DNA of 64,000 nucleotides from Flectonema sp. DT1601 (taxonomy: Eukaryota). Location of the stretch: contig OZ025800.1 in the NCBI GenBank assembly GCA_964019425.1, positions 186,001 through 250,000 on the forward strand. Direction: 5' to 3'. Shown here piece after piece: positions 17,225 through 41,388 of this stretch. Made by a program: the position numbers and the translations under genes. The notes beneath the pieces are model-generated. The model was not told where the DNA came from, ran no database searches, and saw only the letters and a program-made list of their open reading frames with translations. Within the stretch, counting starts at the first letter, position 1; each line of letters starts with the position of its first letter.

Positions 17225-18150
17225 GGACTCCACGAAGGAGGTCTCAAGAGTCGAGGAAAAGACAGAGCCAAGACCCCAGAGCCAACCCAAAACACATGGT
17301 AGAGGACGAGGGAGAACAAGAGCGGGAGCGAGGTTAGAAACGTGACCAAAGCCCCCGCGAAGCAGGAGACACAACCTGCAACCAGACCCCCCCCAAAAAA
17401 AAAACCCCGGTCAACGAGGCAAACTCGGACCAAAACATGCTTTTCACCCCCCCCAGGAAACACCGACCAGTGGAGCCAAAGGCCGCACACATATTATAAA
17501 AATCAAAGGCCGCCCCCCAACCCAAGAAAAGGATGAAAAACTTTCAAGCGAAAAAACTTGACGTCCGTACGCCCCAGAGATCAAAGGACGGACGACTCAT
17601 ACCCCCTTCTTTCGCCCCATTTTATTTACTGGTACAGCGACAAATGTAAAGCTGGGTAGACGACGAATTATTTTTTGTGCACAGAGACAAGGGATCCATG
17701 AGAACAAAGGATCAAGAGAAGAAGTGCACATTCCCCATCCCAAACCCAGAAACATGAGAACTCATTAAATTGAAGGGTCATGTCTTTTCAAGTCGAAAAA
17801 TGCTTAAATGCTAAAGAAGACTGTCGTCCCCAGCTCGCGGGTTTTCCCTGTCGCTGTATGTCGAGACAACGATCAGAGTCAGTAGAAAGATTGTACAAAT
17901 TTGTTGTATAATGAGAAAGGACAAAGAAAGTAGTTTCCATTTTATCTTCCCGGGAAAAAAAAAAAAGAAAAGAGGAAAAACCCGCAAGTTTGCGGGTTTG
18001 CGGGTTCGGGCCCCGGACTTTGAGAGCTTGCTCGCCTTCCAAGTACACACCTTCACTCACCTACCAACAGAAAGGGTAGAGAAAGGCGACTCACTTAGCA
18101 GGGGTTGAAAGTACGGCTAGGAAGGTTCCCAAAAAAAAAAAAAAAAAAAA
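15076..18150 (+). mobile_element. 5'-truncated non-LTR retrotransposon (element 1), related in its 3' architecture to element 3
   Basis: Abrupt GC- and purine-rich block ending in a ~24-nt poly(A) at 18131-18154. Candidate TSD AAAAGAAT at 15068-15075 and 18151-18158. No RT retained. Confidence 0.75.
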
Positions 18151-18523
18151 AAAAGAATTTAATAATTTAAAAAAAATAAATAAAAAAAAAGTTTTATTTA
18201 TTTATTTATTTATTTAGTCACATCCCCCCTGTCTTTCCACTTTATTTTTCTTCATTCTGAGCATTCTTGCCCTTCTTATTTTTTGATAAAGTAAACAAGT
18301 AAAAACAAGCGCAACTGACCTGAGTCCGTTGGAGGACTTCCCCGGATAGGAAACTCAAGACACAGTTAATATAAAGCGAAGGATCAGTACAGGGACGGTG
18401 GCCAAAGACCACTGGGTTACCTACGAGCCATGAAGCTCTGCGGATGTCCTCAGAGAAATTAGGAGATGATTAAGGAGTGTGATAAGGGAGAATGATACTA
18501 ATGAATTAGCAACTACCAATCAG

Positions 18524-21134
18524 TTAACAGTTTGATAAGCCTGTTCGTTGTTCCAAATGCCATAAGTAGCCGGCTAGGGCGTGAAGATTTCTCGTCGCAA
18601 ACATTATTGAAAGATTTAGTTTGGTCTCGGAGATTCTCGCTTCCTGAATGTTTGATCTAATTGTTCCTTCTCTAATGCGGACCACGTCACCATCCTCGCA
18701 ATCAAATATTAGATGTCGGGCAGAAGAGTCTGTTCTTTTGCAGAAGGGGCACTTTATCGGTAGTTCATTTACCCTGAGCAGGGGGTGAGAGCCCGTTCTG
18801 AACCTGGCTATCCTTATCTCTGATTCTCTCAGCATGTCCTTGGGGTATCGAGCCGCTCTCAGGCCTCCGGTAGCATCAAGATATTGCCTAAGCATCACCC
18901 GTTTGATCGGTGGTTTCGCCCTTGTTGAACCCTCCATAATCTTACCAAACAGCTTTCTGTTAGCTTCTCTCACTATCCTTGACTTATGTGCGAAGAAGTC
19001 CATAGTCGTTGACACCGGCTTGCTCTTAACATCTTTTGAGATCTTTTTCGCCAGTTCATCTGCCTTGTCATGCGGTTCAATTCCCACGTGAGCTGGGATG
19101 AATTGAAGGTGTACGAATGAGTCTAATTTTCTTATCCCTTCTAGTATCGAGAGAGAGTTCAGCTTCCTCTGAGCCGCAATTCCACCACGCAGCTCATCCA
19201 GATTGGATTTAGAATCACTGAAGACTCTCGTGATTCCAGATCTGGGACCCAAGACAGAGGTTGCTTTTCCAAATTCACTTATTAACAGCTTCAGAGTTAC
19301 CTGTTCCGCTTTATAACTACTTTCCGTTGCAACAAGTCTCGATGCCATGGTCCGTTCACACGGCGTGATCTGCACTGCCGCTGCGCCTGCCGTGTAGTTG
19401 ACAGGGTCGTGGGATCCGTCAACAAAAATGGACGAGGTACATGGCCTAAGTTCGCTGCAGTACTCCTCGAACTTAGCCTTGTCCACTTCAGCAACACCGG
19501 TCTTCGAATGTCCATATCCGCAAGATATCTCCAGGTTCGGAACATCTATCCATGGCTCGATGCTGTCAGGCATGACAATCCCCTGGATCTCCATATTACG
19601 GTCCTCGGCCGGTAAAGTTGAACTCCAAGTTCCACTAGCGATTCCCTTCGTAGAAGGAACCCAATCCAGTGACCGATACCTAAATAAAGCAATCCTGGCT
19701 TGCTTCTCAATCTGCAGTCTCATCGGGAGTATGTTCGCCTCCCACAGTAACGGAAGGGACCTTGTGTTGAAGCCGCAGCCGGTGATCTTTCTAGCTATCT
19801 TCCTCAGATTCAGGTCAATAGGTTTAAGCTGTTCATCTGTCAGGAAAGGTCCATAGCTCTCGAGCCCATACAGAATCCTTGAGAGGATGTATAAGTTCTT
19901 GATCATGTTCAGCGTTTTGAAATCAAAGTTGAATAGCTCCAACTTTCGGAGCAGAACAAGTCCCTTCCTCGTCTCATCAAGTAGTTTATCCACTTGCGTA
20001 CCATATTTCAGGTCATCGTCAATATGGACACCCAAGTACTTAACACTATCCACCATCGGCATGAGTACGGCAGTCAGCAACTTCACCCAGGTCGGATCCG
20101 GTCCCACTGGCATCAGTGCAAGAAGTTCACTTGCCTTCGTAACCTCAGTATCACCCAGCTTGAGGATCATCGCCCCATTTCCAAGTAATGGCCTACCTTC
20201 TTCATTTGACCGAATCATCCCAGCTAGTTCTTCCCTACTGATCCGAAAGAAGTTCTCTCCTGACGTTCTGGGGAATCCCAGCCTCCAATACATATTCCTA
20301 GGACAATCCACCGGCATCCCGCAGGTCTTCGAAACCGACAGTGCCATGTCATTATCTTTGCACCAACGATCTACTAACCCAAGGACTAATTGCGCCATCC
20401 GGTAAGTTACTTTAAAATCCTTATTCGAAACCACACAAGCTGTGTCGTCTGCGTAGAGTGCTGAAACACATCCAGTCTTCTCAAGTTTCTTAGCCAGGTC
20501 GTCGACATATATCAGATAAAGGAGAGGCCCAACAATCGACCCTTGCGGAACACCTTTCGTCACAGTTCTGTATGCGCTCAGATTGCCATTGACACTAACC
20601 TTTGCTTTCCTTCGCGTCAGAAAGTCAGCAACCCATCCGATGAATGGTGAAGGAATCCCCATCGTCACCATTTTAGCAATCAGTTTAACATGATTTATCC
20701 TATCAAAAGCCTCAGTGAAGTCGAAAGAGAGTAGAATTGAACTCTTACCACCTTTTCTCGCACCATGAAGCGCATTGACCAGCAGTGAGATTTGCTCGCA
20801 AGTATTCCTACCCCTTCTGAAACCTGCCTGAATCGAGGACAAGGCATTATTTGACGTCAACCAATACATCAGCCTGTCGTAAATTATCCGTTCAAGCATT
20901 TTACCGACTACAGATGTCAACGTGATCGGCCTGTAGCTGGATAGCTTTTCCTTGGGTTTACCCGGTTTGTATACCGGTTTAATCATACCCTCTTTCCAGA
21001 CCTTCGGAACTCTAGCTGAGAGCCAGGAGTCGTTGAATACCGATAAGAGAAATCGTCTACCGGTTGCTGATAGGTTCTTCAGCATCGCCCCGTGGATTCC
21101 ATCAGGACCAGGAGCCTTACCAGCTTTTACCTTC
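18524..21134 (-). CDS. Element 2 ORF, 3' part: reverse transcriptase, RNase H, CCHC zinc knuckle
   Basis: KAPGPDG, SYRPITL, DFTEAFD, GVPQGS, YADD, KYLGV; RNase H FVDGS...AE...SDSKS...IPAHVG...DKADELAK; CPFC...RHLIFDC. Confidence 0.95.
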
Positions 21135-21543
21135 TTTTTTTTTGAGGGAGGTGAGAGGCAAGTATGGCAGGAGAGCAAACCCTCGGAACCAGCGATCCTT
21201 ATGTTACATGAGTGTGCGCTAAAAAGATAAACTGCAACACAAGTTTTGGGCCGGTTTTCTAGGTCCTACCATATCTGTCGCCGAAGCGAAGAAAAGAAAA
21301 AGGAAAAAAAAAAACAATATTTGTGGTTGTGTTTGCGCTGATGGTTGCACTCCCACTTCCAGCGTGTTTTTTCTTTCTTCTTACATTTACATACAGTTTA
21401 CATACAACTCTGTCTTCCTTTTCACTCTTCTTTTTTTTTTTTTTTTCATTTTTCTTTTAACATGTTTGCTTCTTTACATTTTTTACAAGTTCACTTCTTT
21501 ACATTTAATTTTTTCCGTTCATTCACTTTCCGTTTCATGCTTC

Positions 21544-24500
21544 TCACATGGCATCGTTTTTCGATCGCGATCCCCGTGATTTCCTTTTCCTCTTCTCTTT
21601 CCCACGCCGCGATCTCTCCAACAATCCGCAGCATTCAGCGTAGTCACACTTCACGCACATGACTACCCGCGTTCCCTTCGCGATCCGCTCTCCACACCTA
21701 TCACACCATCCCTTCGTCGGGTGTTTCACCGGATTCTTGATCGCTGCTTGCGGTATCTCCTTTCCGCACCCACACATCCCTACTGGGGGGCGGTCTTCTT
21801 GTGTCGGTGGGGAGCAGATCGAGCTCGAGTCTGACGTCATCTTGTCTGAGTCATGGTCCATGGTAGGCTCCGTGGTGGTTTCAGGCACAATATTTTTCTC
21901 GTGTGTGCTTGTTACCGCCTGTGAGACTTCCTTACCGTTCTCCTCCTTCCACTTTAACAATCTCCTCCCGACTTTTTCCTCACCTCTCACCCATCGGTAG
22001 GCCTCTTCGCTGGCTTCGGGGGGCAGGCGCTCCAGCCTCAGCGTTGATCCAAGTCGATGCGCCATTCTCTGCGAGACCTCGATGTATCGTCGGTGTGACT
22101 CTACTGAGTGCTCGAGTGAGCCGTACGCCACTATTTCCTTCACTGCGTCTCCGTAACTTAGCAGCTGCGCCATCCCGATCCCTAACGCCTTACCCTCGCG
22201 GTTCGGCGAGCATTCCTTGAGGGGGAATCTCCACATGTGGATCACTTCACCGCCACTTACAACACACGTTCTCGTCTCCCTCTGTGTTGCTGCGTAGAAC
22301 AGTTCATAGATGGGCTTTTCAGAGTGCCATTCTATGAGCTCGATCTTCGCCCTCTTCTTCGAATCTCTAAAAGCCGCTTCCGGTTCCGACTGTCCTCGCA
22401 CTCCCTCCTCAGGCTCATGGATCGCACTTGGGCGCCATCCTATTCGGGGCTCACGTCCATGGTGGGGATCTGCCGATCCTTCCTTCGGCTCCTCGACTGG
22501 TTCCGCTGGCTTCGGTTTCTGTTCTACCTCTGTTTCGCCTGTCATCACTTGGCACACCCACTGGTAAGCTGTGTGCTTTACTTCGACAGGTAGGTCCGCC
22601 AGCCTCAACACTAGTCCTCGTGCCCTTACCACGCTACTTATCGCCCCGAATTTCTCCCACCGTTCTCTCGTCCACTGTTCCAAGGGTGCGTATGCTTGCA
22701 CTTCCACGGGTCCCTCCAGGAGGCCCTTCCCTGTGACCCATTCCAGTGCCAATTCTAGTGCGGCCAGCATGGGGTCTTTTTCCTCTCCTGTGGTCTCATG
22801 CCACTTCTTCATCACTGGTCCTCCGCCACTCCGCACCAGGCACGCCCTTCCGGTTTTGCCTAAGAAAAGGTACACAGCTGGATGTGGTGGTGTTGGCTGC
22901 GTTAACCCTTTCGTGGCTCTGTGCTCTTCGACGTACTCCCGTGCTCTCCTGTCCGTGCAAAGCTTCTTCACCTTCCCACCTGGACAGCGTAGCACTTGCA
23001 GTGAGGCTTCACTCCATGTGCTGTACGTTCCTGGACGCCGTCCACACGGGACCGCGTACCGCCGATTTCTGCGTGGGCCTTTTACTGGCTTGTCTGCTGT
23101 CTTATACTCTGGGTCAGTGCTTCTCAGGAAAGCCTCCGCCTCCTCTCCATTATTGAAGCCCTGATAAACAGCGCAAGAGAGTCCCTTCGTCTGTTTCTCG
23201 GCCTCTGCCCAGCTATTCACGATGGTAGTGCGTCCCCTTCCCTTCGAGATAGCATAGAGCTTGAACTTGCTCTCCATTCGCGTCGCCGGTTGACTCCTCT
23301 GGCCTTTCGTTGTGTGTGCTCGTATTGTGACACGCGTGGCGTTCTTCTTCTCGCACCGACCTAGTGTCTTCACCGTCCTTAGCAGGTTCGGTGGGTTTTG
23401 GGTCCGTGTTGATTGTGGTACTTCACACTGTGTCCGTGACTTTTGCGTTCCAGGCCGTATGAGCATTTCACTGTTCACTTGCCTATAATCCCTTCCTTCC
23501 ATTCCGTGCTGCTCTGGGGGCGTTACCCTGACCACCTGTGGAGCTAGTCGTGGCATCATCGGAACTTCATTTGCGCAGAACATCTCCTTTGTAGCTTGTC
23601 TTCGCAGGAATAGCACGTAAGGGACAGACGACAGCACCTCTCGCCAGCTTGTTGCTCGCTCCACCTCATCGTCCTGGTACCTCCAGCCGCCCGGTGATAG
23701 GGTGAAAGACGTGTAGTGACCCGATCCCAGACACCCCTGATGGACCACCACAGCGGACACCCTATAGTCGGCCTGTATCTTGCTGTTCCGCATCGACACT
23801 TGTTCTCCCAGCGCCATTTTCGTGGCATTCTCGTTCACAATGCATACGATCATCGTTTCCGGCGCCTCCATCAAGATCCTGCGCTCCTGCAAAGACCCCG
23901 TACCGCACAGTCCGCACACGTAGTCCTGTGGTATCGTCGTCGACTCCAGTGCCGACTGTAGGTCCCATCCCCGCAGTATCAGGCCGCAGTCCAGCTCGAT
24001 TGATTGGCTCCCTCCGCCACAGCATATGCACGTGCGTTCTACTGCCACCATGCATGTGAAAGCGTTTGCTAAGAGGTCGCCTGGTCTTGCTCTTTCCTGC
24101 AGGTCCGACACTATGTGTAGTAGGGCTCCGTGGGCGTCCTGTTGTCCTCTTCCCATCCATTCTCTTGTGATCCTCGTTATCTCTCCTTGCGACCCACCTC
24201 CCTGCACCAGTGCTAGTGCGCACACTGTGCACCTCGTCCCGCATACGTGAGGGGTGTTCCGTGCCCGCTGGAAATCCACATGCGACCCCTTCAGTAGTGC
24301 CTGCAAGGTGGCGTTCAGGTAACACGAGTCTCCGAGGTTCGTCAGGCCCTCCATCCAGGTGGTCCGCGTCTGGATATTCGTCCCACCCCCTTGGCTCTGC
24401 GGTTCGGTGACGTCCGGGCCTCTGCTACCAAGACACGGGGCCGCTGGCGCTACCCGCGTGCAGAAAAGGTTTGATTCCGGTTCACAGTCCTCCATGAGTA

Positions 24501-27500
24501 TATCACCCCCTTCATCCATTCCATACGCTAGCGGCTCGCTCGTTTCGGCAATCTCCCCTGTAACTTCCTCCATTAGTTCCTGGGAGTTCGCCCCTTCCTG
24601 GCTCTCATAGTTCTCCATCTGTACATCAGCTTCTCCGTCTGTTCCACGCGCTGTCGGTTCGTCATATCCCTCGCGGTCTTCCTCCCGAGCGTTTGCTTCC
24701 TGTGGTACCAGTGGCTCCCTCTTTTGTTGGGCCTCCTCTGGGTCTTGCTCTCCTTCCCACGGTGCTGTCTCCCACGTGGTCGGTCCTGTTGCGTAAAAGC
24801 CCAGTTTTAGACCTTGCTCCCTAGACGTCTTAGGTTCTGTCGGCTCCCTTCTGCTCTTCTGTGGGGCTGCTCCTTCTGAAACCAATCCATTCGCTTGCGT
24901 CTGTGCGCCCTCTGTCGGTTTCACAAGTGCATGCGGTTCTCCCTGCTCGGGATCACGCAACGGCTGCGTAGGCGTCCGCACGTCCTGGCTTGGTGTTGAA
25001 ATAGACACCGGTGGTGAAAGGTTCCTCGCCGGCAGGTTCGACTCTTCTTTTACCGCAGGCGGCGCCTCCGGTTCTTTCGACCGCTCGGCTACTTTCACCG
25101 GGACCTGTAGCAAATCCTGTCCTGTTTCTTGTAGTTTTAATACGGACTGCTGGGGAGCCGGCGGTGCCTGTCGTCTATCCTGGTCCTCCGGTTGCTTTGA
25201 CAGCGTCAATGGCACCGCACTCAGTCCCTGTGGCATCCGCTCGACATTTTCGTGGGGTTTCACAGGCGGCGGTTCCGATAGCGACAGGGATGTGTCCGAG
25301 TAATTCCCTCCTGCGTGCGATCCTGTCCCCGCCGACGGTTCGGTGACGTCTTTCGTCTGGTCGCTCCCGTCCATTCGCATTGGTTCCGTTGTTGAGCCTT
25401 CTGCCCGCTCTGGACTCCGCGCCTCAGACTTGAGCAGCTGGGGCGGCGGCGGCGCCTGTTGCCCACCGTCCCCTTCGGAGCGGTTAGTTTGTACTGGTGG
25501 CGCTTCCTTCGTCTCCTGCGTCAGCTTCGCAATGTCTCCGTTTGATGCTGGCTCCAAAGTCTCGACATTTCCGTGGGGTTTCACAGGCGGCGGTTCCGAT
25601 AGCGACAGGGATGTGTCCGAGTAATTCCCTCCTGCGTGCAATCCTATCCCCGCCGACGGTTCGGTGACGTCTTTAGTCTGGTCGCTCCCGTCCATTCGCA
25701 TTGGTTCCGTTGTTGAGCCTTCTGCCCGCTCTGGACTCCGCGCCTCAGACTTGAGCAGCTGGGGCGGCGGCAGCGCCTGCTGCCCACCGTCCCCTTTGGA
25801 GCGGTTAGTTTGTACTGGTGGCTCTTCCTTCGTCTCTTGCGTCAGTTTCGCAATGTCTCCGTTTGATGCTGGCTCCAAAGGTTTCGGCTCCGACGGGGAT
25901 GGTGGTTGCTCTGCCCTCGGCTTTTCCACATGCAGAACTGGCTCTTCCCTCCTTTCTACCACCGCCTCCTTCGCTACTTGTGTTTTTTGGTCAAAGTACC
26001 GCCGCCTCGCTCGTCCCGATTTATCGTCCATTGGGCGTGGCTTCAGTGCTCGGCTTGTCCGCATGCGGTGGTCTATGGAGAGGAGCTTCTCACTTAACAG
26101 ACCCTCCGTTCCTTCGATTCTCGTATACACCCAATAAAGCGGCCCCGTGCCTGGTCCTTCTTTGCTCCGCACCCGTTCGTCGCTCACACATGCCCATCGG
26201 TTCCTCGGCGTTCTTACCATTGTCATTGCATGTCTCCCATTGCCACATACACTCCCCGTTAAAACATAACTGCGTGGCCCGCTTTCAGTCTCTACCTGAA
26301 AGGCGGCCCTCGTCGTCTGTTCCACTCTCTCCTTCGCGAACAGGATCGGCGGCATCTCGGCGAATCTCCACTGCACAGTGCAGTCTCTGTTTGGCGATCT
26401 ACACCTCTCGCAGATCGTTGGACTCTTCGTCTCTTCTTCGAGCGGCCCTCCTAAGAGGATGATCTTTGCTGTCTCCGGCTTGGTCTTTGGGTCCAAGACC
26501 ATGAAACTCAGCTGCACCTCCTGCCTCACAAACCCACATACACACCTGTGTGTCGCTTTCAATCTGGATTCGAACAGGCTCCTCAGAGTCCCCCCCCACA
26601 CCGCGCATTCCTTCAGTGCCAGGTTATTTAGGATCTGTTTAAGGAAAGCCAATGGCGAACCTCCTGCCAAAGAATACCTTGTTATCTCCTTCCTGACCGT
26701 GTCCGCCGTGAAGTCCTGGATCGTGACTCGTGTCTCCTCCATTAACCCGTCCAGTCTTGGGTGGTCTTCTTTAGACATCTTCCACAGTACACAGGCGAGA
26801 CATCCCCCTACGCACGTTTTATCCGCCGTTTCTTTCTCTCTCATCAACCCTATTAGTGGTGTGGCCCATATTAGGCTGCAGACTGTTGCTGCGGCGTAGC
26901 ACGTCCCTCTCGTGTTCTCAAATCCCCTCACATCCGATGTGGCCCACTTGTCATCTTGTTTTCCCGACGCCTCGTAGGACAATAACGGCCGCTTCGTGAT
27001 GTCTAGGTCCGCCATATCTCGCTCTAGCTGGGCCATCACATCTCTGCCATGTCCTTTGAACCTTGGAACACTTCCTGGCTTGCCTTCCGAAACTACCAGC
27101 TTCACCACCGGGGCGCCCGGCAACCGTCCTGTCTCTTTCGTCGTGGGTCCCGGTCCCTCAGCTCGTGAAGGCTCCGTGATTGCGTTCCCTCGGTCCGGAG
27201 TTGGTCCCTCCGCCGGCGTCCTCCCTCCGACTCCAGATTCCTCAGTTGACGGTTCCTCCGTTCGTGCCTCCCCCGGCTCCCCTGCCCCTCCGTGAGTCTG
27301 CTCCAGTTCCTTCGGCTCCTGCAGGGTGGACCTCGTCCCGCTTTCCGGGGCTTGCACCTCCCTCTGGTTGCCTGCCTTCTGTGTGCTATCTCTTGCAGCT
27401 TGGCCAATCTCCGGCGCAGCGTCCGGTCCGGTAGTCCTTCCCACACTCCGGTCGGCCTCCGACAGTAACCGCCCCGATTCGTCTGGCCCCTCCCCGATGC

Positions 27501-30500
27501 TCCCCATCTTGTCGACCAGGTCTTGTATCTCGTCTTCCCACTCATCCTCCTTGAATATCGGGGGTAGATCCGTACTGATAGGTGCTCCGTCGCCCCCCAT
27601 CAGCAACTCCCCCCTATCTTCGACCGCTCTCGCCCAGCTATACGCTAGCGTTGTTGATATCTCTTTCGACAGTGCCCTCCACGCCTCTGCCGGTCTCCGT
27701 GTCCTCAGAGAAATCGCCTTGATGAAGGCCGCAGCTGCCTCATTCATGGCCCCGTCGCGCGTGAAGACTAGAGGAACGAAAGCTATTCCCTTCGAGCTAC
27801 ACTCCTCCCCGTATTTCTTCACCTTTTCCCTCTCCTTCGCCTGGATGACCCGCCTCGCATCCAAGTGCGATCCCCGGGACAGACTTGTCTGCGAGCATAC
27901 CTCGATGACCGTCACGTCGTACGCCGCCGGTCTTCCTGTCCAGTTTCGTGTCGTTCCCGGCACTGCCTCGCTTACCAGGATGTCGGCCGGTTTCCTCCCT
28001 CCATCTAGGATTCGTTGCGGCTCCATTTCCACGGACATCCCCGTCACCCTTGCCTGCTTCGCCAGGAAATCCCTGACTAGGTTATGGCGTATGGTTGGCG
28101 TTGCCCCCCGGTTACACATCCCTGCGTGCACCCCCCGAGGGTCTAGCTTAGCGTTGCACCTCTTGCATAGCTGTCCCGCCTGTAAGACCTCCAGCCCTAA
28201 ATGCGCCCTGATCGCGGTCCGGAAAATTTGTGACGGCATCACGGTTCCCGTGTCGCTTGCCTCCGCCAACCACGCACTCGCCCTCGGCATGGACACCGCT
28301 CTGAAGTGTGCAAGTCTTTCTCGGTCTCCGCTCCCCTTCAGGTCGTTGACCATCTTCGTTTTCAGCGAGGCGTCGATCTTCATTGACAGCTCTCTCTGTC
28401 GCACTACCTTATCGAGGTCCAGGTCGCACTCCTCCGAGGTCTCCAGCGTCAGCGCTTTACACACCCCACTCCACTCCTCAGGGTCGACTTGGTATTGGGC
28501 GTCCAGCTCCACGCACAGTTTCCTCGTCGCAGTGGCCGACGCTGCTCTGCCCGCCGCCGCGTGTCTCCCACAGTTTCGCAGGCCCACCCCCCCTTCCCGC
28601 AAAGGTAGCTCCGCCTGTAAGTGCGCCCGCTCATCCATATCCCCACCCACGAGACCCCGCAACACGCTTCTCACTACCGCATCGAAATCTGCCAGACCTG
28701 ATCGCTGGTCCTCCAGGTACATTGACCTCATCAAGTATACCATCTTCCCATACGAATGGCAGTATCGTAGCTGGGTCAGCGCTACGTGCCGATCCGGTAG
28801 CATCGTCAGTGACTCGCTTACTTTCTTCAGCTTCGTCACGTACTGCAGCAGGTATTCCTTGCAGTAGCTCCCACTCCCTACCGGTAGCTTGAGAATGGTG
28901 AAGTTTCCCTCGGACTCTTGTTTCACCTTCTCCAAGCCCCCCTTCGGTTCCAGGCCCACCCGCAGAGGTACGAATACGCACTTCGCCTCCTTTACCTTTA
29001 GCCCCAGGCTTGATGCCTTTTGAACCAGGTAGTCGTACGCCTTCGCTAGTTCGTCTACGCCTCCCATCAACACTCCATCGTCTAAGAACCAGAGGCTTCC
29101 ATCCAGTCCCATCTTCTTGAGTCCCTCCAGTAGGCTTTTTATCCCGAGTGAGAAAAGGAGAGGCCCCGCCGGATCCCCCTGTTGGGCCCCCTCCCTCGAC
29201 GGAATCGTGGTATCCTCAAAAAAGAGGCTCGTCGGTCTCTCGTAACACCACGATGCCAAAGGCAACAGTTCCGGCAGCGTGGACGCCAGCTCACGCAGGA
29301 ACACCGCCCTCGAGACACAGTTAAAAGCGTTCTCAAAATCAATGGTCAGGATTGCCTTGTTGGCCCCCCTGTTCCTCCTCGCGTAGTCCCGTACTATTGC
29401 GTACACCGCCTCCACCCCACTGGGTACCGCCACCCCCAGCTGTCCTCCTGGCTTTAAGAGGTTTGGTATCTTGGGCCTTATTTTTGCTAGCACTATCTTC
29501 CACGCCCACCTCCGCAGTGATTCCCCTACTGCTATTGGTCTATACCCGGTCGGCTCTTTCTTCAGCGCGATCAGGCGAGCTCCTGCCAACACCGGTGCCG
29601 CCTCATAAGGTACTTTCCCTCTTACCAGTAGCTCTAATGTAGTGCAGAGCGTTGGCATCAACCCTCGCAGTCCCGTGTCGCACGCTTGCTTCAGGAGCTC
29701 CACGCTTAATCCCGACGGTCCGGCCCCCGTGTCCTTCGGGAATGTCTTCAGCGATGCTAGTGCTTCCTCCGGCGACACTACTGTGTTCCCCGTTCTCACC
29801 CCCTCCAGGTCTATCTTCTCGTGCATGGGACTCGGGTGGATGGTCTGCATCGCCGCCAGGACTTCCGGCGCGTTCGGCGCTAGCCCGCTCGACACCAGGC
29901 ATTTATTAGCCTGCGCGTACCTCCCTCTCCTGCTCAGGGCGCAGCACCGCTCATACCGTTCTCCCTGTGTCGTTTCCTTCTCCCGTCGTCTTTTGTTCCT
30001 CTTTGCCCTCGTGCTCCACATCGCTACATACTCTCCCCTCAGCCATCCTTCCAGCCTGCTCGTCAGCCTCTCCCTATGCGTCTCTGTCCCCTTCTCATCC
30101 TTCCGCACCGCCGGCGTTCCCAGGCATGCTTTCGGGAGCATCAATAGCAGCTTCCATGCCCGCGGGTCATTCCGCTGTGCTATCCGTTGCAATGTTGCCA
30201 TGAGAGCTCTCGCCCACAACATCGTCAGCCTCTCGTCCAACTTTTTTGGCACCACTACCTGTGCCGCCCCTATCTCCTCCCACGACGGCAGCTCTCCAAG
30301 CTCTTTTTCGTCTGGCCACGGGGCGTTCTGAACCTCTTCCTCCCCCCCATCTAGCGCCATGGCTTCTCTACATCTCGGGTGGACCCCGGTGCTGCTTCCC
30401 GTCAGACACCCACACATCGTGCATGGTCGCACCCCCATCGCCTGCTGCTCCGCCTCCGTGAGAGGGCGATCTGACAGGAGGTGCTCCTTGTTCAAGTGGC

Positions 30501-31624
30501 CTAATAGTCCTCCCCAGTTCTTATATCCCTCAAATCGCTGGGCGCGTGATCGCGAGCATTCTCCCCTGGGGCAGTAGTAAGGCCCAGACCCCCTCAGTCC
30601 CGCGCTTGGTCCCGTCCCCAGGCCTATCCTCACCGCAGCCTCTTCAGCCGTTTGTTCGGAGAGCTTCAGCACATACACCGCCTCGGCTCTCTCCTCCACC
30701 CGATTGAGCATTTCGGCGTCCGCTTGGAGCACTGCCTCGTAGTGTTCTTTATCCAGCACTATCCACAGCGGGATGTCCTCAGTCCTTCTCAGGGGCAGCA
30801 TCTTTAGGAGTCTCCCCGCCTCCCACACTATGATCACTACTCCCATCTGGTCCGCCGCAACCTGCAGCGCTACGTTGTCCCCCCATCCCTTGTTCTCCAG
30901 TCGTACAGCGTAGTCCTCCTTGGCCAGTCCGTTGACGAACCATTGGTCCGTCCTCTCTTCACCTCTCATGTATTCCGCGAGTCTCTTCCGCAGCACCCTC
31001 GCACCCACTCGCCGATTCCATTCTCCCTTCGCCAGTAGGATTGCTCGGAACATACAGTCCCCATCCCCCTTAGTCTTGGTTACACTGACTCTCGGGAACT
31101 CCCTCTGTAGCTCTATGGACGTGCTTGGCGTTGCTTCCCCCTCCACCTCTCTGGAGCTGCTCAACTTCCTACACCTTGGGTGCATACTGGCCGTCCCCTT
31201 CATTGCTCGTCCGCAGTGTCCGCACGCCTTCATGCCGCAGTCAGCCCACTGGTCCTGTCCCAATTGACCTTTATGCTTCCCATCTATGTGTGCCAGCAGG
31301 CCATTCTCCGTCCCAGACCACTCACACACTGGGCAGCTCGCACCCCCACCTCTCATCTCGTGGGGTTGCTGCTTGCAACTGCTTCTCGGCTTTGACGTCG
31401 ACTGTTCATCTTCCGGCGCTCTCTCTTCCTTTGTTCGTCCCCCACTTTTCGTTTTCCGGGCCTTTTCCCGCTTCTTCTCTTGTTTCTTGTGCCATCGCGC
31501 TGGTGGACTCAGTCTCCACCTGTCGCTCGCCCGGTTTGGCCCCCTCACCTGTTGCGTGATTTCTTCCTGATACCTCTCGGTCTCATTCGTTCCCGCGCAA
31601 CCCACTAGCTTTGGCTGGGGGAAT
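21544..31624 (-). CDS. Element 3 polyprotein (~3360 aa): ZnF - OTU - ZnF - RT - RLE - USP - repeats - USP - 2x RNase H1 HBD - 2x degenerate RNase H-like - ZnF
   Basis: RT: YRPIAVGESLRR, IDFENAFN, QQGDPAGPLLF, WFLDDG. RLE: CKRC...HAGMC, RHN, PAD, YDVTV, KEREKVKKY. OTU: GDGDCMFRA...WG...HYEA. USP: GFENTRGTCY and GLTNLGDSCYLNA...QQDA...VVVHQG...GHY...DD. Confidence 0.9.
25241..25881. repeat. Two near-identical 321-bp (107-aa) in-frame tandem repeats within the element 3 ORF
   Basis: LEPASNGDIAKLTQETKE...LSEPPPVKPH occurs twice; TCGACATTT at 25241 and 25562. Confidence 0.92.
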
Positions 31625-32747
31625 AAGATAGCGCGCTCAAGCTCAGACATCACCAGAGGTCCACAAGCACCTGCGTAATCACTTGGCTTCAGCTTCGGAG
31701 ATTTCAAACGTTTCCTGACAGAGGTCTTAACGAACTGATCGAGAAATTTACTGGGGAGTTGGTCCTCACTGAATTCAGGGATTTGGATGTCTTGACCCCC
31801 ATCGGCATCCAGGTCCTTAATCTTCTTGAAGGCGAATGCAAAACCTTCACCTTGTGCAAGTTTCTCAGCAACGAACTTTCCCTTCGCTTGTTTGGTCTCA
31901 GGGGTTGAGGAATTCCACAATCTCCTCCTCTTACCCTGGATCCTGAGCCTTCTGCGGATGTTCTTCTTCGCCACATGAAGCAGGATACGGTTAAATGTTG
32001 CCGCTCTGATACCCACCTTCGGAGGACTGTTCACCTTGCTAAGTCGGTAGTCCAAATCAAGACGGAACGAGTACCAATCAGCTGTATTAAAGTCCCAGAC
32101 TGATTTTTTCGATGCCTGGTTGTTCACTGTTTCCAGCGGTGAGAACGTGTCAAAGACTGCAGCAAGAGGTAAGTGATCAGACCCATGTTCAGAGCCATCA
32201 CCAATTAACCCGAAGTGTAGTAATTGTAACTCCTCGTGGTGGAGGATTGCATCCGGTGAAGTCCCGTGTCTCGGCAACGTTACAAATCCCGGATCGTTTG
32301 CAATTAGAAGGTTATTAGATCTGCACCACTCCAGAAGCTGGCAGCCCTTCGTATCCGTCTTCTTTGACCAGAGTTTATGATGAGCATTGAAGTCACCAGC
32401 AAATATAAACCTTTCGTCACGCTTCAAAGGGAAGAGATCAAAATCTATCTTAGAACTTGGCGGCGAATACACGTTGAGAACATTTACCTCATCATTAATC
32501 CTGACACCCAATGTCTCAACAATTCCTCTAACCGAAGGGATACAGACTTCATAGCAAGCATGCTGAAGGCCTCTCTTCACCATGGTGATTATACCGCCAC
32601 CTCTACCCGGTCTATCTCTCCTGTACGTGATGTAGTTCCAGTGGTACAGAGGCTTCCGAACTGAAGTTTCCTGTAGGCATAATACATCAGGGCTATACTT
32701 ACCCAGGATGTTTCCTATGAACTCCTCTCTTCCGTTGATCGTTCTGC
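31625..32747 (-). CDS. Element 2 ORF, 5' part: apurinic-like endonuclease (APE) and linker
   Basis: PDVLCLQET, GGG, NVYSPP, AGDFNAHH, TSPD and GSDHLP motifs. It starts at CRTING, i.e. lacks the first few APE codons. Confidence 0.92.
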
Positions 32748-32776
32748 AATAAATAAAAAAAAAAAGAAATTTATAT

Positions 32777-32858
32777 GGCGAGATGGCCGAGCGGTCTAAG
32801 GCGTTGCGTTTAGGCCGCAATATCTTCGGATGCGTGGGTTCAAACCCCACTCTCGTCA
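32777..32858 (+). tRNA. trnL-TAG: tRNA-Leu (anticodon TAG)
   Basis: GGCGAGA/TCTCGTC acceptor stem; A box TGGCCGAGCGG; anticodon arm TTGCG-TTTAGGC-CGCAA; long variable arm; B box GGTTCAAACC. Confidence 0.96.
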
Positions 32859-32859
32859 G

Positions 32860-32864
32860 TTTTT
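32860..32864 (+). terminator. RNA polymerase III terminator (T5)
   Basis: TTTTT one base after the tRNA discriminator. Confidence 0.8.
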
Positions 32865-33438
32865 CAAGATGAAAATCCTGTTTAAAAAATTACTCATAAG
32901 TTTTAAACACTTCAATTAGCTGACCTAGCCGCATATTCGCTTTGTTTTGTACTCCAGCAAAAACATGGGCGAAGGAGTTAGAAGGGGTGACAGATGATCC
33001 AAGCAAACACGCAGGTCAGTGAACCTCATCTATGCCCAGCGAGGGACACGTTTTTGAAGATCTGACCGCAGATGCAAGGAAACATAACAGAATAGAGAAG
33101 AAAAAAAATAGAACCAAGAAATCAAAAAAACCGACACAGAGTACCGAAAATGAAGCCTCATCGTTCGTGGCTTCCCAAGTTTCTCAGGAAAAAGGAAAAG
33201 AGTAAACCAAAAAAAAAAAATCGACTGATGACAATGCAAATAGAATTGTATTCAAAGCGTTTCTTCAACAGCGAAATTACGTTGGGAAATGGGAAGAGCT
33301 CGCATCGGTTGATGCCAACTGAATTGAATATTGCGAATATTAAGTTTTGAATATTGTGACGTGAACTTGTATTTTTTGTCGTGCTCATTAAATGAGCACG
33401 ACAGGCAGTGAGGAAATTCTTTCAAAATATAAGTTTAA

Positions 33439-35156: not shown

Positions 35157-38100
35157 TTAAATTAAATGGTGATCACTTGACGATTCAACCTTTAACTCCA
35201 TTGTTGGTGGCATCGTCACTTCCAGGACCCCATTTGCGTTTCTCCTTTTTTTCACTAACAATACAACACCAATAGCAAGAAACATCACGCCGCATGTTGC
35301 ACCCGCTGTGAGAGCGATAACCCATGCTGGTATGCTGTCGTTTGAATCATTTGGGGAATTATTTACACTCTTCTGAATGGTTGCGTTTTCTAGAATGAAT
35401 GCGTAACCGTCACCGTTGTTAGAAAAAGACCCTTCGTTGGTTGTCGCCAGCTTGCTTGCCTGCTTGAGTTCGTTGATTGCTATTTCACTGTTGGTTTCGA
35501 AATCTACAAAAACATGTTCATGTTCTCCAATTCTGGACTGCGAAGATCCACTGAGAAGCGAACCCCTGGCCTTTGTGTCAAATTCTATAATGTCGGATTC
35601 CTCTGACCAAAGCACACTAACTCTGATTCCATGTTCCTGTAAGTTCTTTGTTGGAGGTAGGTCTCCATTGCTCATAACCCAACCGATAAACTTTATCTTC
35701 AACAATGATGGATTGTTCAGCAGTGTCGCTGATGCCCTAATTAGAGTTTGCTGCATGTGTTTGTGAAAGCGCTTTGGGTTCGACTGTACCATACTAAAAG
35801 CACCTCTGAAACTGATACGGAAATCGATGTCTGATGACTCGTGAAAGAAAGGATCCGTGCATCGAAGCCCCTTTAACTCACAACAGTATTGAGAATGCTC
35901 CATTGATAGTAGTTGTGGACTGTTGCAATCAACAGGACAAGCAATGTTAAATTCACTGCAACACCAATTCTGTTGTTCTGAGGACCACACACTTGCCGTT
36001 GTTGTAAAGCAATCGAACTTTTCTGAATGACATCCCACACCTACTCTGTTGCAGCACTCTTGTTTGTCAAATAGAGTATCTTTCAGCTGCGCAGTTCTAC
36101 ACTTATGATACAGCTCGATATCAATTTTAGGCGGACAGTTGATGTTTTCAGCCGCGCAGCAGTACTGACGCTTTGTTTCTGACCAGGGGAGCCTTTGACC
36201 ATCGGAGCAGTCAGGCTTCTCTTCAACAGGACATCCAATATTGTAATGTTTGCAACACACATTTTGATTATCTTTATGGACCAACAGGTCCTCAACTCGA
36301 GTTCCAAATAACTGACTTTTCAAGGTGCAATCATACTCTGGGATTGGGCATCCCATTTTTTGGTTGTCGCAGCACCATTGTCTCTGCTGAAAACCCCACA
36401 GTGTGGTTTCTGTTTTGCAACGATATCTGTCTCCCACAGCCTTGCAATATTCATTGTCCGTTGTACAGCAGTCTTCCATCTGCTCCTCTGACAAAGAGCG
36501 TGCATGAATACACTTCCCTGTAGTTGGTTTGTCAAGGCAAACTGGTTGACACTCTTTATCATCAGTACATGGCATACATCCTGAGCAAACCTTTTCTGGA
36601 GGGCATCGACCCGTTGGCGAGCAAAGAATAGCAGATTTCCGGTCGGATTGACATTTTGGAGAATATTGGCAAGTCCAGCGTTTCTCAGCCTCAGAGGCAT
36701 CTTCTGCGCAAACAAGAGGACTGACACACGACGAGCTTCTATCAAAGGAGTTAAAACCAGCAGTCTTGCAAACATCACCCTCTTCCATTACCTTCTTGAC
36801 ACACACTCCTGGAATATCAGCAATCTTTTCGTTGTAAGCACATTCAAAATCTGGATGACAGGCTTCCGAAAAACAAATCATGGTGTACCCCCCACAGTAC
36901 TCACCCTCGTGCGAATAAGGAACACAGGCCTTTTGGTTATCATAGTCACACCCACCCTTACTGTCAACAACCTGTCTGCAGTGTTTAGTGTTGGAACAGT
37001 CATCATTGCTTTCACACGGTTCTGGGACCCGACAAGTTTGGACATCATCAAGGGAATCTTTAGTATCGCAGATAAGTCCAACAGGGCAGTCGTATCTTCG
37101 CGACACTTCCTTTCCAAAGCAAACGTCGCCCTCTGCAAGCTTTCGCGGCGGGGTTGGTGTCAACAGCTGACAACTCCATTCTCCATTTAGGGTTCCATCT
37201 CTCGGAGAGCATGTAAGCCCAACTTCACACCTGCGTTGAGCAGCAAGCTGTCCAGCAGCTTTGCATGTATCCCCCAGAGCCAATGCTTCAGATGGATCCT
37301 GACAGGTACCCGGCGCATCGGCAATGAATTCATTGTAGATGCATTTAAGGTTCGGGTGGCAAGTCTTTGCGAAGCAGGCCGGCATGAAGCCACCGCACGA
37401 TTCTCCCTTCGATGCGTATCTCACACAACCTTTTGGACCAGTTCGTTCACAACTTCCATTAGGACCTGGAGTTTGGCGACAAACGTGGGACTTGATACAA
37501 TCCTTGTCAGTGTGACATTCTTCAGGTTGCTGGCAGGTGTATCGATTGCTGTCCAAAGCATCACAAACAAGACCCGAGTCGCAGTCGTATTCACGGTTGA
37601 TGTCTGCGGTTTTGCAGACCTCTCCTTCTCCGAGCTTGATGGAAGTAGATGCTTTCGTACAAACCCATGAACCCTCAGCATTGCTGAGTTGCAATGACTT
37701 ACAAACTAATCCATCACCACACGACGAGCTTCTATCAAAGGAGTTAAAACCAGCAGTCTTGCAAACATCACCCTCTTCCATTACCTTCTTGACACACACT
37801 CCTGGAATATCAGCAATCTTTTCGTTGTAAGCACATTCAAAATCTGGATGACAGGCTTCCGAAAAACAAATCATGGTGTACCCCCCACAGTACTCACCCT
37901 CGTGCGAATAAGGAACACAAGCCTTTTGGTTATCATAGTCACACCCACCCTTACTGTCAACAACCTGTCTGCAGTGTTTAGTGTTGGAACAGTCATCATT
38001 GCTTTCACACGGTTCTGGGACCCGACAAGTTTGGACATCATCAAGGGAATCTTTAGTATCGCAGATAAGTCCAACAGGGCAGTCGTATCTTCGCGACACT

Positions 38101-41100: not shown

Positions 41101-41138
41101 ACTAATAAAAGAGCCACAATTACCTCTCTCATCTTCAT
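35157..41138 (-). CDS. Large Cys-rich type I membrane (surface) protein with internal tandem repeats
   Basis: 1993 aa. Signal peptide MREVIVALLLVSVTA; many GExC...C..GLxC and WCC-x5-C modules; TM helix WVIALTAGATCGVMFLAIGVVLLV followed by KKRR. Confidence 0.9.
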   Translation of the reverse strand: MKMREVIVALLLVSVTAQSLCGDNCKDRDCRVSAAGDVECYFDCKSTTSWSDEKKSWCCKEEHICDFDCQTDEEWSIKKSMWCCSIMNECSYNCKTRELWTEVKTKWCCEVRNMGCPFSQPPQLGDHCDASEPKCDSGLSCQPQLYPSDQWVCKSRCNSDADCDERFEFCKAAFLPTGDCDFQNQLRERVCIKRLEFNSRCGGYSPPCFETKCGLGMTCEGEQQQVDGSGVCVRDIIQKGEVCKTRDYKIGGYIGYDLSKRCKSGLSCQPALRDGDGDWVCKQSFSSAGKLGDFCEVGAECDSGLLCQPQSFADIKNGKWICMTSCSTDGECIENTEFCKPLILRSTGFCEEPYSGKGVCSKRTEINSQCGGFVPYCMVTRCELGMTCEGDQQQVDGPGVCVRDIIQKGEVCKTRNYDVSHFEGFDLSHRCDKGLSCLVAPSSDWICQVAEILKEGEVCKSGGVESGFIMDKRNMCAEGLLCKPREDVAAPGGEVPWICATSINLKLGEGEVCKTADINREYDCDSGLVCDALDSNRYTCQQPEECHTDKDCIKSHVCRQTPGPNGSCERTGPKGCVRYASKGESCGGFMPACFAKTCHPNLKCIYNEFIADAPGTCQDPSEALALGDTCKAAGQLAAQRRCEVGLTCSPRDGTLNGEWSCQLLTPTPPRKLAEGDVCFGKEVSRRYDCPVGLICDTKDSLDDVQTCRVPEPCESNDDCSNTKHCRQVVDSKGGCDYDNQKACVPYSHEGEYCGGYTMICFSEACHPDFECAYNEKIADIPGVCVKKVMEEGDVCKTAGFNSFDRSSSCGDGLVCKSLQLSNAEGSWVCTKASTSIKLGEGEVCKTADINREYDCDSGLVCDALDSNRYTCQQPEECHTDKDCIKSHVCRQTPGPNGSCERTGPKGCVRYASKGESCGGFMPACFAKTCHPNLKCIYNEFIADAPGTCQDPSEALALGDTCKAAGQLAAQRRCEVGLTCSPRDGTLNGEWSCQLLTPTPPRKLAEGDVCFGKEVSRRYDCPVGLICDTKDSLDDVQTCRVPEPCESNDDCSNTKHCRQVVDSKGGCDYDNQKACVPYSHEGEYCGGYTMICFSEACHPDFECAYNEKIADIPGVCVKKVMEEGDVCKTAGFNSFDRSSSCGDGLVCKSLQLSNAEGSWVCTKASTSIKLGEGEVCKTADINREYDCDSGLVCDALDSNRYTCQQPEECHTDKDCIKSHVCRQTPGPNGSCERTGPKGCVRYASKGESCGGFMPACFAKTCHPNLKCIYNEFIADAPGTCQDPSEALALGDTCKAAGQLAAQRRCEVGLTCSPRDGTLNGEWSCQLLTPTPPRKLAEGDVCFGKEVSRRYDCPVGLICDTKDSLDDVQTCRVPEPCESNDDCSNTKHCRQVVDSKGGCDYDNQKACVPYSHEGEYCGGYTMICFSEACHPDFECAYNEKIADIPGVCVKKVMEEGDVCKTAGFNSFDRSSSCVSPLVCAEDASEAEKRWTCQYSPKCQSDRKSAILCSPTGRCPPEKVCSGCMPCTDDKECQPVCLDKPTTGKCIHARSLSEEQMEDCCTTDNEYCKAVGDRYRCKTETTLWGFQQRQWCCDNQKMGCPIPEYDCTLKSQLFGTRVEDLLVHKDNQNVCCKHYNIGCPVEEKPDCSDGQRLPWSETKRQYCCAAENINCPPKIDIELYHKCRTAQLKDTLFDKQECCNRVGVGCHSEKFDCFTTTASVWSSEQQNWCCSEFNIACPVDCNSPQLLSMEHSQYCCELKGLRCTDPFFHESSDIDFRISFRGAFSMVQSNPKRFHKHMQQTLIRASATLLNNPSLLKIKFIGWVMSNGDLPPTKNLQEHGIRVSVLWSEESDIIEFDTKARGSLLSGSSQSRIGEHEHVFVDFETNSEIAINELKQASKLATTNEGSFSNNGDGYAFILENATIQKSVNNSPNDSNDSIPAWVIALTAGATCGVMFLAIGVVLLVKKRRNANGVLEVTMPPTMELKVESSSDHHLI
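36725..39623. repeat. ~2.9 copies of a near-identical 993-bp (331-aa) coding tandem repeat
   Basis: CACACGACGAGCTTCTATC at 36725, 37718 and 38711; the ORF track repeats with a 993-bp period. Confidence 0.95.
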
Positions 41139-41388
41139 GTGTTGTTTTTAGCTGTAAATAAATAAAATGGTAAGCCAGCTTGTGGTAACACGTGTTTGGT
41201 ACTTTAGCAAACACATTTGTATTTACGTAATTAAAATAATATGACAGTTGTCAGCCCTGAAGTAGATAAATAACAATCAAAGTGTATGTGACGAACTCAG
41301 AAAAACAAAGACTCTATTACTCAAGGGGGATTGAACCCGCAAGCAAGAACTAACTACTTAACTTATCAAAGAAACAAAAAAGGAGGGG

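Follow-up and report, generated by a model that had tools for sequence, protein, structure and literature searches.

A nested, 5'-truncated RLE retrotransposon in Flectonema sp. DT1601 with three predicted deubiquitinase-type protease domains

The window analysed here is a stretch of 64,000 nucleotides from Flectonema sp. DT1601 (GenBank assembly GCA_964019425.1, contig OZ025800.1, positions 186,001 to 250,000), to which all coordinates refer. At 21137..31626 (-) it carries a 5'-truncated copy (~10.5 kb) of a non-LTR retrotransposon whose endonuclease is of the restriction-like type (RLE), here called family A. The ends of the copy are defined by the host element that it splits (tblastn), and its GC content is about 57-58% against a background of 34-43%. 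The domain order is ZnF-OTU-ZnF-RT-RLE-USP-USP, followed by two RNase H1 N-terminal domains. An earlier note, made from the sequence alone, had described a giant RLE element with one OTU and two USP domains. This is borne out: OTU, RVT_1 and UCH (for USP2) all pass the curated Pfam cut-off, PDB and ESM Atlas comparisons agree, and USP1, which lies below the Pfam cut-off, is supported as a member of the fold family by the Atlas and by profile. The architecture as first read lacked the 5' truncation, the nesting, the two Cauli_VI domains and the wider clade.

The note had also reported one uninterrupted ORF of ~3360 codons. The element part (31626..21547) does contain 3,360 codons with no stops, compared with 196 and 98 stops in the other two sense frames and a longest ORF of 472 codons in 200 base shuffles, but the ORF runs on to 32889, fused in frame with an APE gene. 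The stop-to-stop ORF (32889..21544 (-), 3,781 aa), which provides the residue numbers used below, is a chimera because the copy splits a host element at the boundary of codons 319 and 320 while keeping the reading frame. This host is a separate APE-RT-RNase H retrotransposon of 1,189 aa, unrelated to the insert and with 74 cluster members. Its 5' half, encoding the APE endonuclease (PF14529), occupies 31627..32743 (-) in frame with the insert (aa 1-319 map to 32583..31627 at 99.7%), and its 3' half, the RT and RNase H region, occupies 18524..21136 (-) (aa 320-1189, 99.9%; both by tblastn), with a (TAAA)n tail near 18190-18215. The insertion is clean: host codons are neither lost nor duplicated at the junction. 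The 3' UTR of the copy (21137..21543 (-)) ends in a run of nine A (21143-21135), and host codon 320 can account for two of these; the poly(A) at the 3' junction is 7-9 A. A Dualen-like reading of the fusion was rejected, since the APE corresponds to aa 1-319 of the separate host element and only mimics Dualen; the full copies P0009 and P0011 are without it. An Rfam scan of 14000-35000 gave tRNA-Leu as its sole match, and a promoter scan with bacterial models, irrelevant here, was empty.

All features of the copy lie on the minus strand. The remnant of an N-terminal leader (31357..31626) comes first; the final ~55 aa of this remnant are also conserved in a second family, B (score 67, reached by 0 of 2000 shuffles). 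It is followed by a [Leu/Met]-x-Gly-Gly motif (31345..31356), a candidate self-cleavage site that resembles the ubiquitin C-terminus. Two conserved Cys/His pairs of zinc fingers flank the OTU domain: a C2H2-like plus a Cys/His finger at 31147..31344 (36% identity to family B) and a second pair at 30352..30594 (57%). The Pfam C2H2 match is weak (E 0.067, in P0104). The OTU domain itself (30712..31095) matches PF02338 over aa 607-692 (E 8.6e-8), with Cys612 and His716. The RT with its N-terminal extension (28537..30351) matches PF00078 (RVT_1) over aa 1110-1307 (E 5.8e-13), with the catalytic pair Asp1270-1271 at nt ~29082. The CCHC knuckle and RLE (27607..28191; Cys1575, Cys1578, His1588, Cys1592 and Asp1636) were assigned by motif comparison with PMC12857005, the spacing departing from the SLACS/CRE motif at two places, each time by a single residue, and through an insert of ~8 aa.

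Downstream of the endonuclease lie USP1 (26113..26943), a 321-bp tandem duplication in a low-complexity linker (25240..25880; the frame is kept, and the duplication is also present in P0009 and P0011) and USP2 (23593..24354). USP2 is a canonical USP, in which the Cys box, switching-loop box, His box and Asp/Asn are all present (Cys2856, His3058, Asp3073). It matches PF00443 (UCH) over aa 2848-3094 (E 5.3e-15). In the PDB it matches 54 sequences at E<=0.001, and every one among the matches listed is a USP; it scores 86 bits on a profile of cellular USPs (maximum for shuffles, 5.2).

USP1 is a divergent USP (peptidase C19). The earlier note held that it keeps Cys, His and Asp. Cys1997 and His2220 are confirmed, but the third triad position, usually Asp or Asn, is Ser2236 with Asp2237 adjoining. 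This is the same in both families, as are the retained Cys, His and oxyanion Asn and the replaced switching-loop box. Pfam gives UCH_1 alone (E 0.046). The top ESM Atlas match is 0.96 (191 of 256 features in common), all ten of the ten best family-bearing matches belong to one family or clan, and a two-sequence profile finds USPs in six of seven PDB rows (best E 0.0022). On the cellular USP profile USP1 scores 5.4 and 7.7 bits, values reached by 1/500 and 0/500 shuffles, and the hhalign comparison with cellular USPs is weak (probability 14%, E 0.0019). AlphaFold2 models have a mean pLDDT of 33 alone and 36 with one homolog. Foldseek with the second, low-confidence model retrieves solely USP-family chains among the matches listed (best E 6.8e-5); with TM ~0.2 and rmsd 15-23 A, this does not amount to structural proof. 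USPs of Nucleocytoviricota make up its three nearest clusters in the Atlas, and these taxa are no evidence of transfer. With its altered box, USP1 may prefer a ubiquitin-like modifier.

The C-terminal part includes two RNase H1 N-terminal (Cauli_VI) domains (22921..23274; PF01693 in two stretches, E 3.4e-18; 46% identity to family B), predicted to bind RNA/DNA hybrid or dsRNA. The conserved domain that follows (22537..22890; 33% identity to family B) is possibly a catalytically dead RNase H fold, a lead only: its RNase H row in the ESM Atlas reaches just 0.87, Pfam gave no RNase H match and the first-strand Asp is absent by eye. A second, diverged copy of this domain (21970..22332; E ~1e-4 to 6e-4) occurs in family A only. 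The protein ends with a Cys-rich motif and then a basic tail (21622..21819; 42% identity to family B).

Family A has 26 members, with full ORFs of 4,614 and 4,730 aa (up to 14.2 kb) and, in the full copy P0011, a leader of 1,460 aa. The recent activity proposed earlier fits the copy described here, which has no amino-acid differences from P0011 over residues 1371-4730; the data indicate a young, recently copied, multi-copy element. Other copies do keep the USP region. The whole layout is common to four long copies (P0001, P0009, P0011 and P0047), each on a contig of a different length; the same junctions, compared at the protein level, occur in proteins from contigs of 13 different lengths among the 16 members seen; and most shorter members retain the C-terminus. 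Family B preserves the order of the domains along with all catalytic Cys and His residues. Its identity to family A is 41-62% across OTU, RT, RLE, USP1, USP2 and the Cauli_VI pair (62% for RT and 41-42% for the USPs) compared with 9-23% in the four linkers. There is no close cellular donor of the USP domains among the USP matches, the best non-element match having an E of at least 2.4e-7. For the leader, Glyco_hydro_11 and FLYWCH Pfam matches on 29-aa repeats were taken as repeat artefacts; a vWA-like reading by eye of aa 1-467 in P0011 was dropped (no PDB match at E<=10, no fitting Pfam match); and a membrane anchor was rejected, hydrophobic segments being absent in families A, B and P0115.

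In the RT tree, families A and B fall in a clade of 13 rows (100/98), together with a Diplonema element, and 12 of the 13 have OTU- or USP-like domains. The N-terminal OTUs keep Cys and His in all eight cases. Additional OTUs follow the RLE in P0002, P0183 and P0220, and dead or partial ones occur in P0182, P0220 and P0181. Different deubiquitinase folds, OTU or USP, therefore fill the post-RLE slot, and the clade appears to have gained such domains repeatedly. The tail of P0293 may hold half of a USP-like domain, but the match is borderline (7.2 bits; 0/500 shuffles on one profile, 24/500 on the other) and a lead only. The unusual ~2,000 aa after the RLE remarked on earlier measure 2,055 aa in the present copy, against a median of 48 in relatives (127 of 146 measured); this length is at most 329 aa in 66 of 80 loci of relatives. 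Pattern searches of viral contigs gave 23 matches, none confirmed as an RT relative.

The RT followed by a CCHC knuckle and a PD-(D/E)xK-type endonuclease, the poly(A) 3' end and the 5'-truncated copies are those of RLE non-LTR elements; in family A the endonuclease is not the last domain. A possible placement in the CRE group is consistent with an automatic annotation (SLACS 132 kDa) of the nearest named relative, a Diplonema papillatum protein; the trees cover search matches only. R2 and L1 structures match the family A RT weakly (E at least 5.9e-6). Elements of the narrow CRE1/SLACS/CZAR type target spliced-leader genes site-specifically and leave a long duplication of the target; the present copy splits a retrotransposon rather than a spliced-leader gene or telomere, and no codon is duplicated. 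Family A resembles the wider group (CRE1/2, SLACS, CZAR, Cnl1, MoTeR and FoTeR) in having an N-terminal ZnF, RT, CCHC knuckle and RLE in one ORF and a poly(A) end, but differs in the ~2,050 aa after the RLE, the three protease domains and the two RNase H1 N-domains. It also resembles FoTeR in its tandem repeats toward the 5' end (PMC12857005).

Accessory proteases are known in other mobile elements. Dualen/RandI carries a Josephin-like protease, and part of PMC4640811 describes an Ulp1 cysteine protease in the non-LTR elements NeSL and Utopia-1_TSP. These accessory proteases belong, like those of family A, to the ubiquitin/SUMO field. Each of these elements has one N-terminal protease, whereas in family A an OTU precedes the RT and the two USPs lie downstream of the RLE. 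One or several deubiquitinase domains also occur in Helitron/Helentron (VTD and OTU, the VTDs shown to be active) and Ginger1 (OTU/Ulp1), and part of PMC2836005 describes a USP-type domain (peptidase C19) in one DNA transposase, from Trichomonas. In contrast to family A, a retrotransposon, these are DNA transposons with other protease combinations. Viral OTUs, the polinton vOTU and the small USPs of giant viruses offer a further likeness: viral OTUs serve both in processing and in deubiquitination, as described in part of PMC11071308; family A differs in being a cellular retrotransposon.

The [Leu/Met]-x-Gly-Gly motif stands ahead of the first conserved domain in seven of eight clade members (P0300 is the exception) and in 0/55 other relatives, counts to be read with the knowledge that the pattern was first noticed in the same proteins and that the eight are kin. 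Among controls, bare Gly-Gly occurs in 16/55 and the full motif, with a wider window, in 2/55. Leaders are open for 106-1,460 codons in six of the seven motif-bearing proteins. The motif is a possible self-cleavage site; it could also be a start site, because four of the seven have Met at the first position. It gives the earlier idea of self-processing a sequence lead. The pattern is found 10 times in P0011, several within folded domains, and five times in P0104.

With little more than even confidence, we lean towards the reading that the OTU and the two USPs are likely deubiquitinases shielding the element's own protein-RNA particle, and that the OTU likely also frees the protein from its leader. 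In target-primed reverse transcription, established for RLE elements, the RLE would nick the target and the RT would copy the RNA from its poly(A) end; starting there, the process yields many 5'-truncated copies. The predicted proteases would strip ubiquitin from the element's protein, averting ubiquitin-driven destruction, while a predicted OTU cut after Gly-Gly would take the working protein off the long leader and the two RNase H1 N-domains would putatively bind RNA/DNA hybrid. Helitrons provide a parallel: part of PMC9741609 describes interchange of deubiquitinase domains and VTDs active on K48/K63 chains, and proposes that the VTDs keep proteins needed for transposition from being lost to the proteasome. 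Viral OTUs are credited with both polyprotein processing and deubiquitination (PMC11071308, in part). Against this reading, three proteases look excessive for self-protection alone.

It is also conceivable, if unlikely, that the USPs, held on the RNA/cDNA hybrid by the RNase H1 N-domains, de-ubiquitinate chromatin or repair factors and steer repair to complete insertion. USP2 adjoins the two hybrid-binding-type domains in both families, the insertion is clean and a repair role has been suggested for OTU/Ulp1 in DNA transposons (part of PMC2836005). However, a profile search found no such domains in the OTU-only clade members, most relatives lack a tail altogether and transpose all the same, and no result of the analysis points to a chromatin substrate.

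Slightly less probable still is that the proteases mainly mature a polyprotein into leader, RT-RLE core and C-terminal part, with no important host ubiquitin substrate. The conserved motif at the leader boundary, the long unconserved linkers between domains and the release of terminal protein by vOTU proposed for polinton polymerases (PMC11071308, in part) are in keeping with this; yet none of the motif occurrences in P0011 and P0104 is common to both in a post-RLE linker, one protease would suffice whereas the clade keeps adding more, and USP2 retains the canonical boxes used for ubiquitin. It is highly improbable that the USP region represents neutral cargo (a host gene captured once) or results from a chimeric assembly: the 5' end of the ORF is indeed a chimera and the other copies were compared as proteins only, but the junctions recur on contigs of 13 different lengths, family B keeps the order and active sites at ~40% identity and the USP matches include no close cellular donor.

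Alongside the preferred reading of protection by deubiquitination we raise, tentatively and with more doubt than confidence, a broader history: that a lineage of LINE-type retrotransposons, probably in diplonemids, became virus-like polyproteins in which the OTU separates the RT-endonuclease from a leader that can be exchanged, cutting at a site that mimics the ubiquitin tail, while OTU or USP deubiquitinases came to fill the post-RLE slot on several independent occasions, in an evolutionary arms race against a ubiquitin-based host defence. If this history is true, the in-frame insertion of a truncated copy into the ORF of another element, as seen here, need not prevent a complete protein from being released from the host transcript.

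RLE retrotransposons are regarded as LINEs of the compact, ancestral type, in which the endonuclease comes last. In family A the ORF can reach 14.2 kb and includes three predicted protease domains from two deubiquitinase families, kept across two element families that are only ~40% identical in those domains. Why transposons carry deubiquitinases is a question raised for Ginger, Helitron and NeSL. Members of the clade form a natural gradation, from one OTU through two OTUs to an OTU with two USPs, with dead copies as well; Diplonema papillatum, the model diplonemid, has a member in its genome, and a specific cleavage site is predicted. Together these make the question directly testable. If active, the domains would add small divergent USP enzymes, and, if the protection reading is true, they would suggest that euglenozoans control retrotransposons at the protein level, through ubiquitin.

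The open frame from 32889 to 21544 on the minus strand comprises 3,781 codons, and residue numbers refer to this ORF (32889..21544). Pfam places an APE endonuclease at its start and identifies, on the same strand, an OTU domain (E 8.6e-8), an RT (E 5.8e-13), a UCH domain (USP2, the second USP after the RLE; E 5.3e-15), two Cauli_VI (RNase H1 N-terminal) domains after UCH (E 3.4e-18) and a weak UCH_1 match below the cut-off (USP1, the first USP; E 0.046). At aa 1575-1658, the residues of a CCHC knuckle and of the endonuclease agree with the SLACS/CRE motif given in PMC12857005, with slightly different spacing. The OTU, RT, RLE and canonical USP described in the earlier note are thus all present. 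Its ~3360-codon ORF holds for the family A part, whose 3,360 codons contain 0 stops (200 base shuffles gave no ORF longer than 472 codons), but not for the whole frame, to which the APE of a host element is fused 5'. GC content is about 57-58% in the family A copy against 34-43% in the gene-bearing flanks.

The APE and the RT ORF at 18524-21265 are two halves of this one host element, whose cluster has 74 members (intact 1,189-aa ORFs in 5 of 15 among the matches listed). Residues 1-319 of the intact host protein map to 32583..31627 (99.7%) and residues 320-1189 to 21136..18527 (99.9%). The giant element (31626 to 21137) therefore sits between two adjacent host codons, with none lost or repeated; it ends 3' in 7-9 A. 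Its in-frame fusion with the host APE can be chance. A Dualen identity for the APE-RT-RLE ORF was rejected: the APE belongs to the separate host element and the ORF is a chimera.

In the host RT (protein P0034, aa ~590-675; window ~20070-20320), about 85 extra aa are inserted downstream of the catalytic motif. In the stretch 32743-32859, a tRNA-Leu(TAG) gene (32776-32859, plus strand) lies head to head with the host APE element, about 35 bp from its apparent 5' end; tRNA-targeting elements are similarly placed beside tRNA genes. A T-rich tract ending in AG upstream of the APE frame is a possible splice or trans-splice acceptor. In this frame, as in intact copies, the first ATG comes after residues conserved at the APE N-terminus.

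The window ORF is a member of a 26-protein cluster at 90%; 16 of these proteins are among the matches listed, on at least 13 different contigs. The proteins of three other copies, P0009 (4,614 aa), P0011 (4,730 aa) and P0001 (3,746 aa), have an identical Pfam layout, USP region included. The window copy begins at P0011 residue 1371 and shows 0 differences from there to the end, in agreement with the recent activity already proposed; among 11 members compared, the other 10 have between 0 and 11 differences. The C-terminus is retained in most shorter members; this is expected of 5'-truncated copies, and frameshifts would look alike. Full copies add a leader (hydrophobic start, Cys-rich part and 29-aa repeats whose number varies between copies), which had no match in Pfam or PDB searches.

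A search with USP2 returned 52 matches. The top one (40% identical, E 3.9e-44) is P0048, a protein of a second giant-element family, family B; the others are weak (E at least 2.4e-7), those named being mostly cellular USPs. The P0048 cluster contains 10 proteins, including P0104 (3,667 aa) with OTU, RT, UCH and two Cauli_VI domains. We infer that families A and B and the host element belong to one assembly. Identity between A and B is 45% in the OTU, 62% in the RT, 59% in the RLE, 42% in USP1, 41% in USP2, 46% in the Cauli_VI pair, 33% in the domain after this pair and 42% in a C-terminal Cys motif, against 9, 22, 12 and 23% in four linkers. All catalytic Cys and His are conserved. Judged at the protein level, conserved domains beside diverged linkers are the pattern of purifying selection.

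Against a profile built from 49 USP domains among the other matches of the USP2 search, USP1 reached 5.4 and 7.7 bits (shuffles as high: 1/500 and 0/500), and hhalign gave a probability of 14%. Its ESM Atlas score is 0.96, with 191 common features; the nearest clusters are small USPs of Nucleocytoviricota, with PF15499 (SUMO-isopeptidase family) in 10-25% of their members. USPs make up 6 of its 7 PDB rows, and Foldseek on a poor model listed exclusively USP-family chains, weakly suggesting the same fold. The earlier description was right as to divergence and the catalytic Cys and His; instead of Asp, both families have Ser at the position that holds the third triad residue in most USPs. USP30 also has Ser there. 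The switching-loop box is altered in both families and may resemble that of the SUMO protease USPL1. USP1 is probably an active USP fold of uncertain modifier.

Relatives were 146 new proteins among the 150 best matches in 1.84 billion representatives. The length after the RLE (measurable in 127) had a median of 48 aa and a maximum of 1,083, against 2,055 in family A and 2,110 in family B; that such elements normally end soon after the endonuclease, and that ~2000 aa is unusual, is supported. Of 449 confirmed metagenome loci, 80 were kept; the maximum here was 329 aa (66 measurable), and OTU, USP and Cauli_VI profiles had no match. A search restricted to 1,798-5,723 aa found 3 proteins (7,976 candidates scored) and missed family B because its cluster representative is shorter; length-restricted searches therefore undercount.

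RT trees were built with FastTree (209 domains, with copies of families A, B and C and of the host excluded and 10 sequences removed on coverage) and IQ-TREE (49 hand-chosen rows from that set, LG+G4, unrooted). A and B are sisters (100/100) within a 13-row clade (100/98), and 12 of the 13 rows carry a deubiquitinase-type domain. Eight have an N-terminal OTU with Cys and His (A, B, P0002, P0112, P0115, P0181, P0187 and P0300). In P0002 (whose family has 187 members), P0183 and P0220, OTUs stand downstream of the RLE; dead or partial ones occur in P0182, P0220 and P0181. P0293 has a borderline USP-like half domain, and the sequence of P0240, beginning within the RT, gave no deubiquitinase-type match. 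Outside the clade, the OTU profile, built from clade members, had no match among 292 sequences. A Pfam scan of 32 hand-picked long RLE relatives gave Ulp1 matches in P0316 (above cut-off) and P0275 (weak), both outside the clade.

Within the group of P0002, P0183, P0220, P0182 and P0181, OTUs stand either side of RT-RLE or in tandem after the RLE; some are catalytically dead, and Cys-rich fingers then follow in several. Other RLE relatives carry Prim-Pol (P0215, P0219), MLLE (P0195, P0189) or, weakly, RNase H ahead of the RT (P0228). P0115 is a Diplonema papillatum protein with a SLACS-like label. The window's ORFs, long and mostly on one strand, resemble the co-transcribed gene clusters of Diplonema (PMC10161547). 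Taken together, the P0115 relationship and this arrangement suggest that the host is a diplonemid.

Elsewhere in the window, a fragment of a third GC-rich element (15074-18190, plus strand) contains a 716-aa ORF with one Cauli_VI (E 4.3e-6), a domain that may be a dead RNase H-like one, and a long, acidic tail of low complexity. The fragment ends in poly(A) at 18131-18190, with its tail facing that of the host element. It matched none of families A, B and C by tblastn, and its ORF is absent from the protein collection (two alternative starts tried). A 1,996-aa Cys-rich, signal-peptide-like ORF (35157-41147, minus strand) with three near-identical 993-bp repeats had no Pfam match; 902-bp repeats (41380-43960) lie next to it. 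Clustered diverged direct repeats (49360-52174; 100-440 bp, 75-98% alike) lie amid short ORFs.

The motif [Leu/Met]-x-Gly-Gly, a pattern picked after inspecting these proteins, was sought in a span reaching from 45 aa upstream of the first conserved domain to 8 aa inside it. Of the 8 clade members that have an N-terminus, which are kin, 7 carry it there (P0300 lacks it), against 0/55 other relatives whose N-terminus has a finger; across these proteins, 0-10% of all equivalent spans contain it. Bare Gly-Gly is present in 16/55 controls; when the span is widened to 80 aa, the motif itself is found in 2/55. Its first position is Met in 4 of the 7. The window copy keeps the site (31345-31356, minus strand). 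The motif resembles the ubiquitin C-terminus, Leu-Arg-Gly-Gly. Upstream, 6 of the 7 proteins have an uninterrupted frame of 106-1,460 codons, and the last 55 aa of the leader are alike in A and B (0/2,000 shuffles), which favours a predicted cut after a translated leader over a start site. The USP1 box replacing the switching-loop motif (aa 2073-2079) also starts with [Leu/Met]-x-Gly-Gly in both families; either coincidence or a substrate mimic within the domain could account for this.

Repbase reportedly includes a choanoflagellate CRE family with an OTU; the OTU by itself may therefore be known already in such an element. OTU/Ulp1 occurs in Ginger1, Helitron and Mutator and peptidase C19 with a Trichomonas transposase (PMC2836005), Helitron VTDs are active, 121 also with OTU (PMC9741609), and Ulp1 occurs in NeSL and Utopia (PMC4640811); viral OTUs combine polyprotein processing with deubiquitination (PMC11071308). 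Passages of PMC9940879, PMC6431247, PMC5348765 and PMC5678591 yielded nothing relevant. By title and abstract we found no non-LTR element with OTU and USP, though supplements and Repbase Reports may describe related ones, and in the literature searched no earlier description of the USP pair, 2,000-aa tail, clade-wide pattern or Gly-Gly motif.

As is established for RLE elements, nicking of the target by the RLE provides the site where the RT primes, starting from the poly(A) end. On balance, we favour a scheme in which the OTU would release the working protein from its leader, and OTU and USPs would strip ubiquitin off it so that it survives until integration. That the proteases act instead where the element inserts, on factors of repair or chromatin, steered by the RNase H1 N-domains, is possible but unlikely; that they serve processing only ranks next and is doubtful. 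That the USP region is cargo or an artefact is very improbable. The family A element is real and recently copied, and is a new layout within a known class, with a predicted function: deubiquitinating its own working protein so that it would last to integrate.
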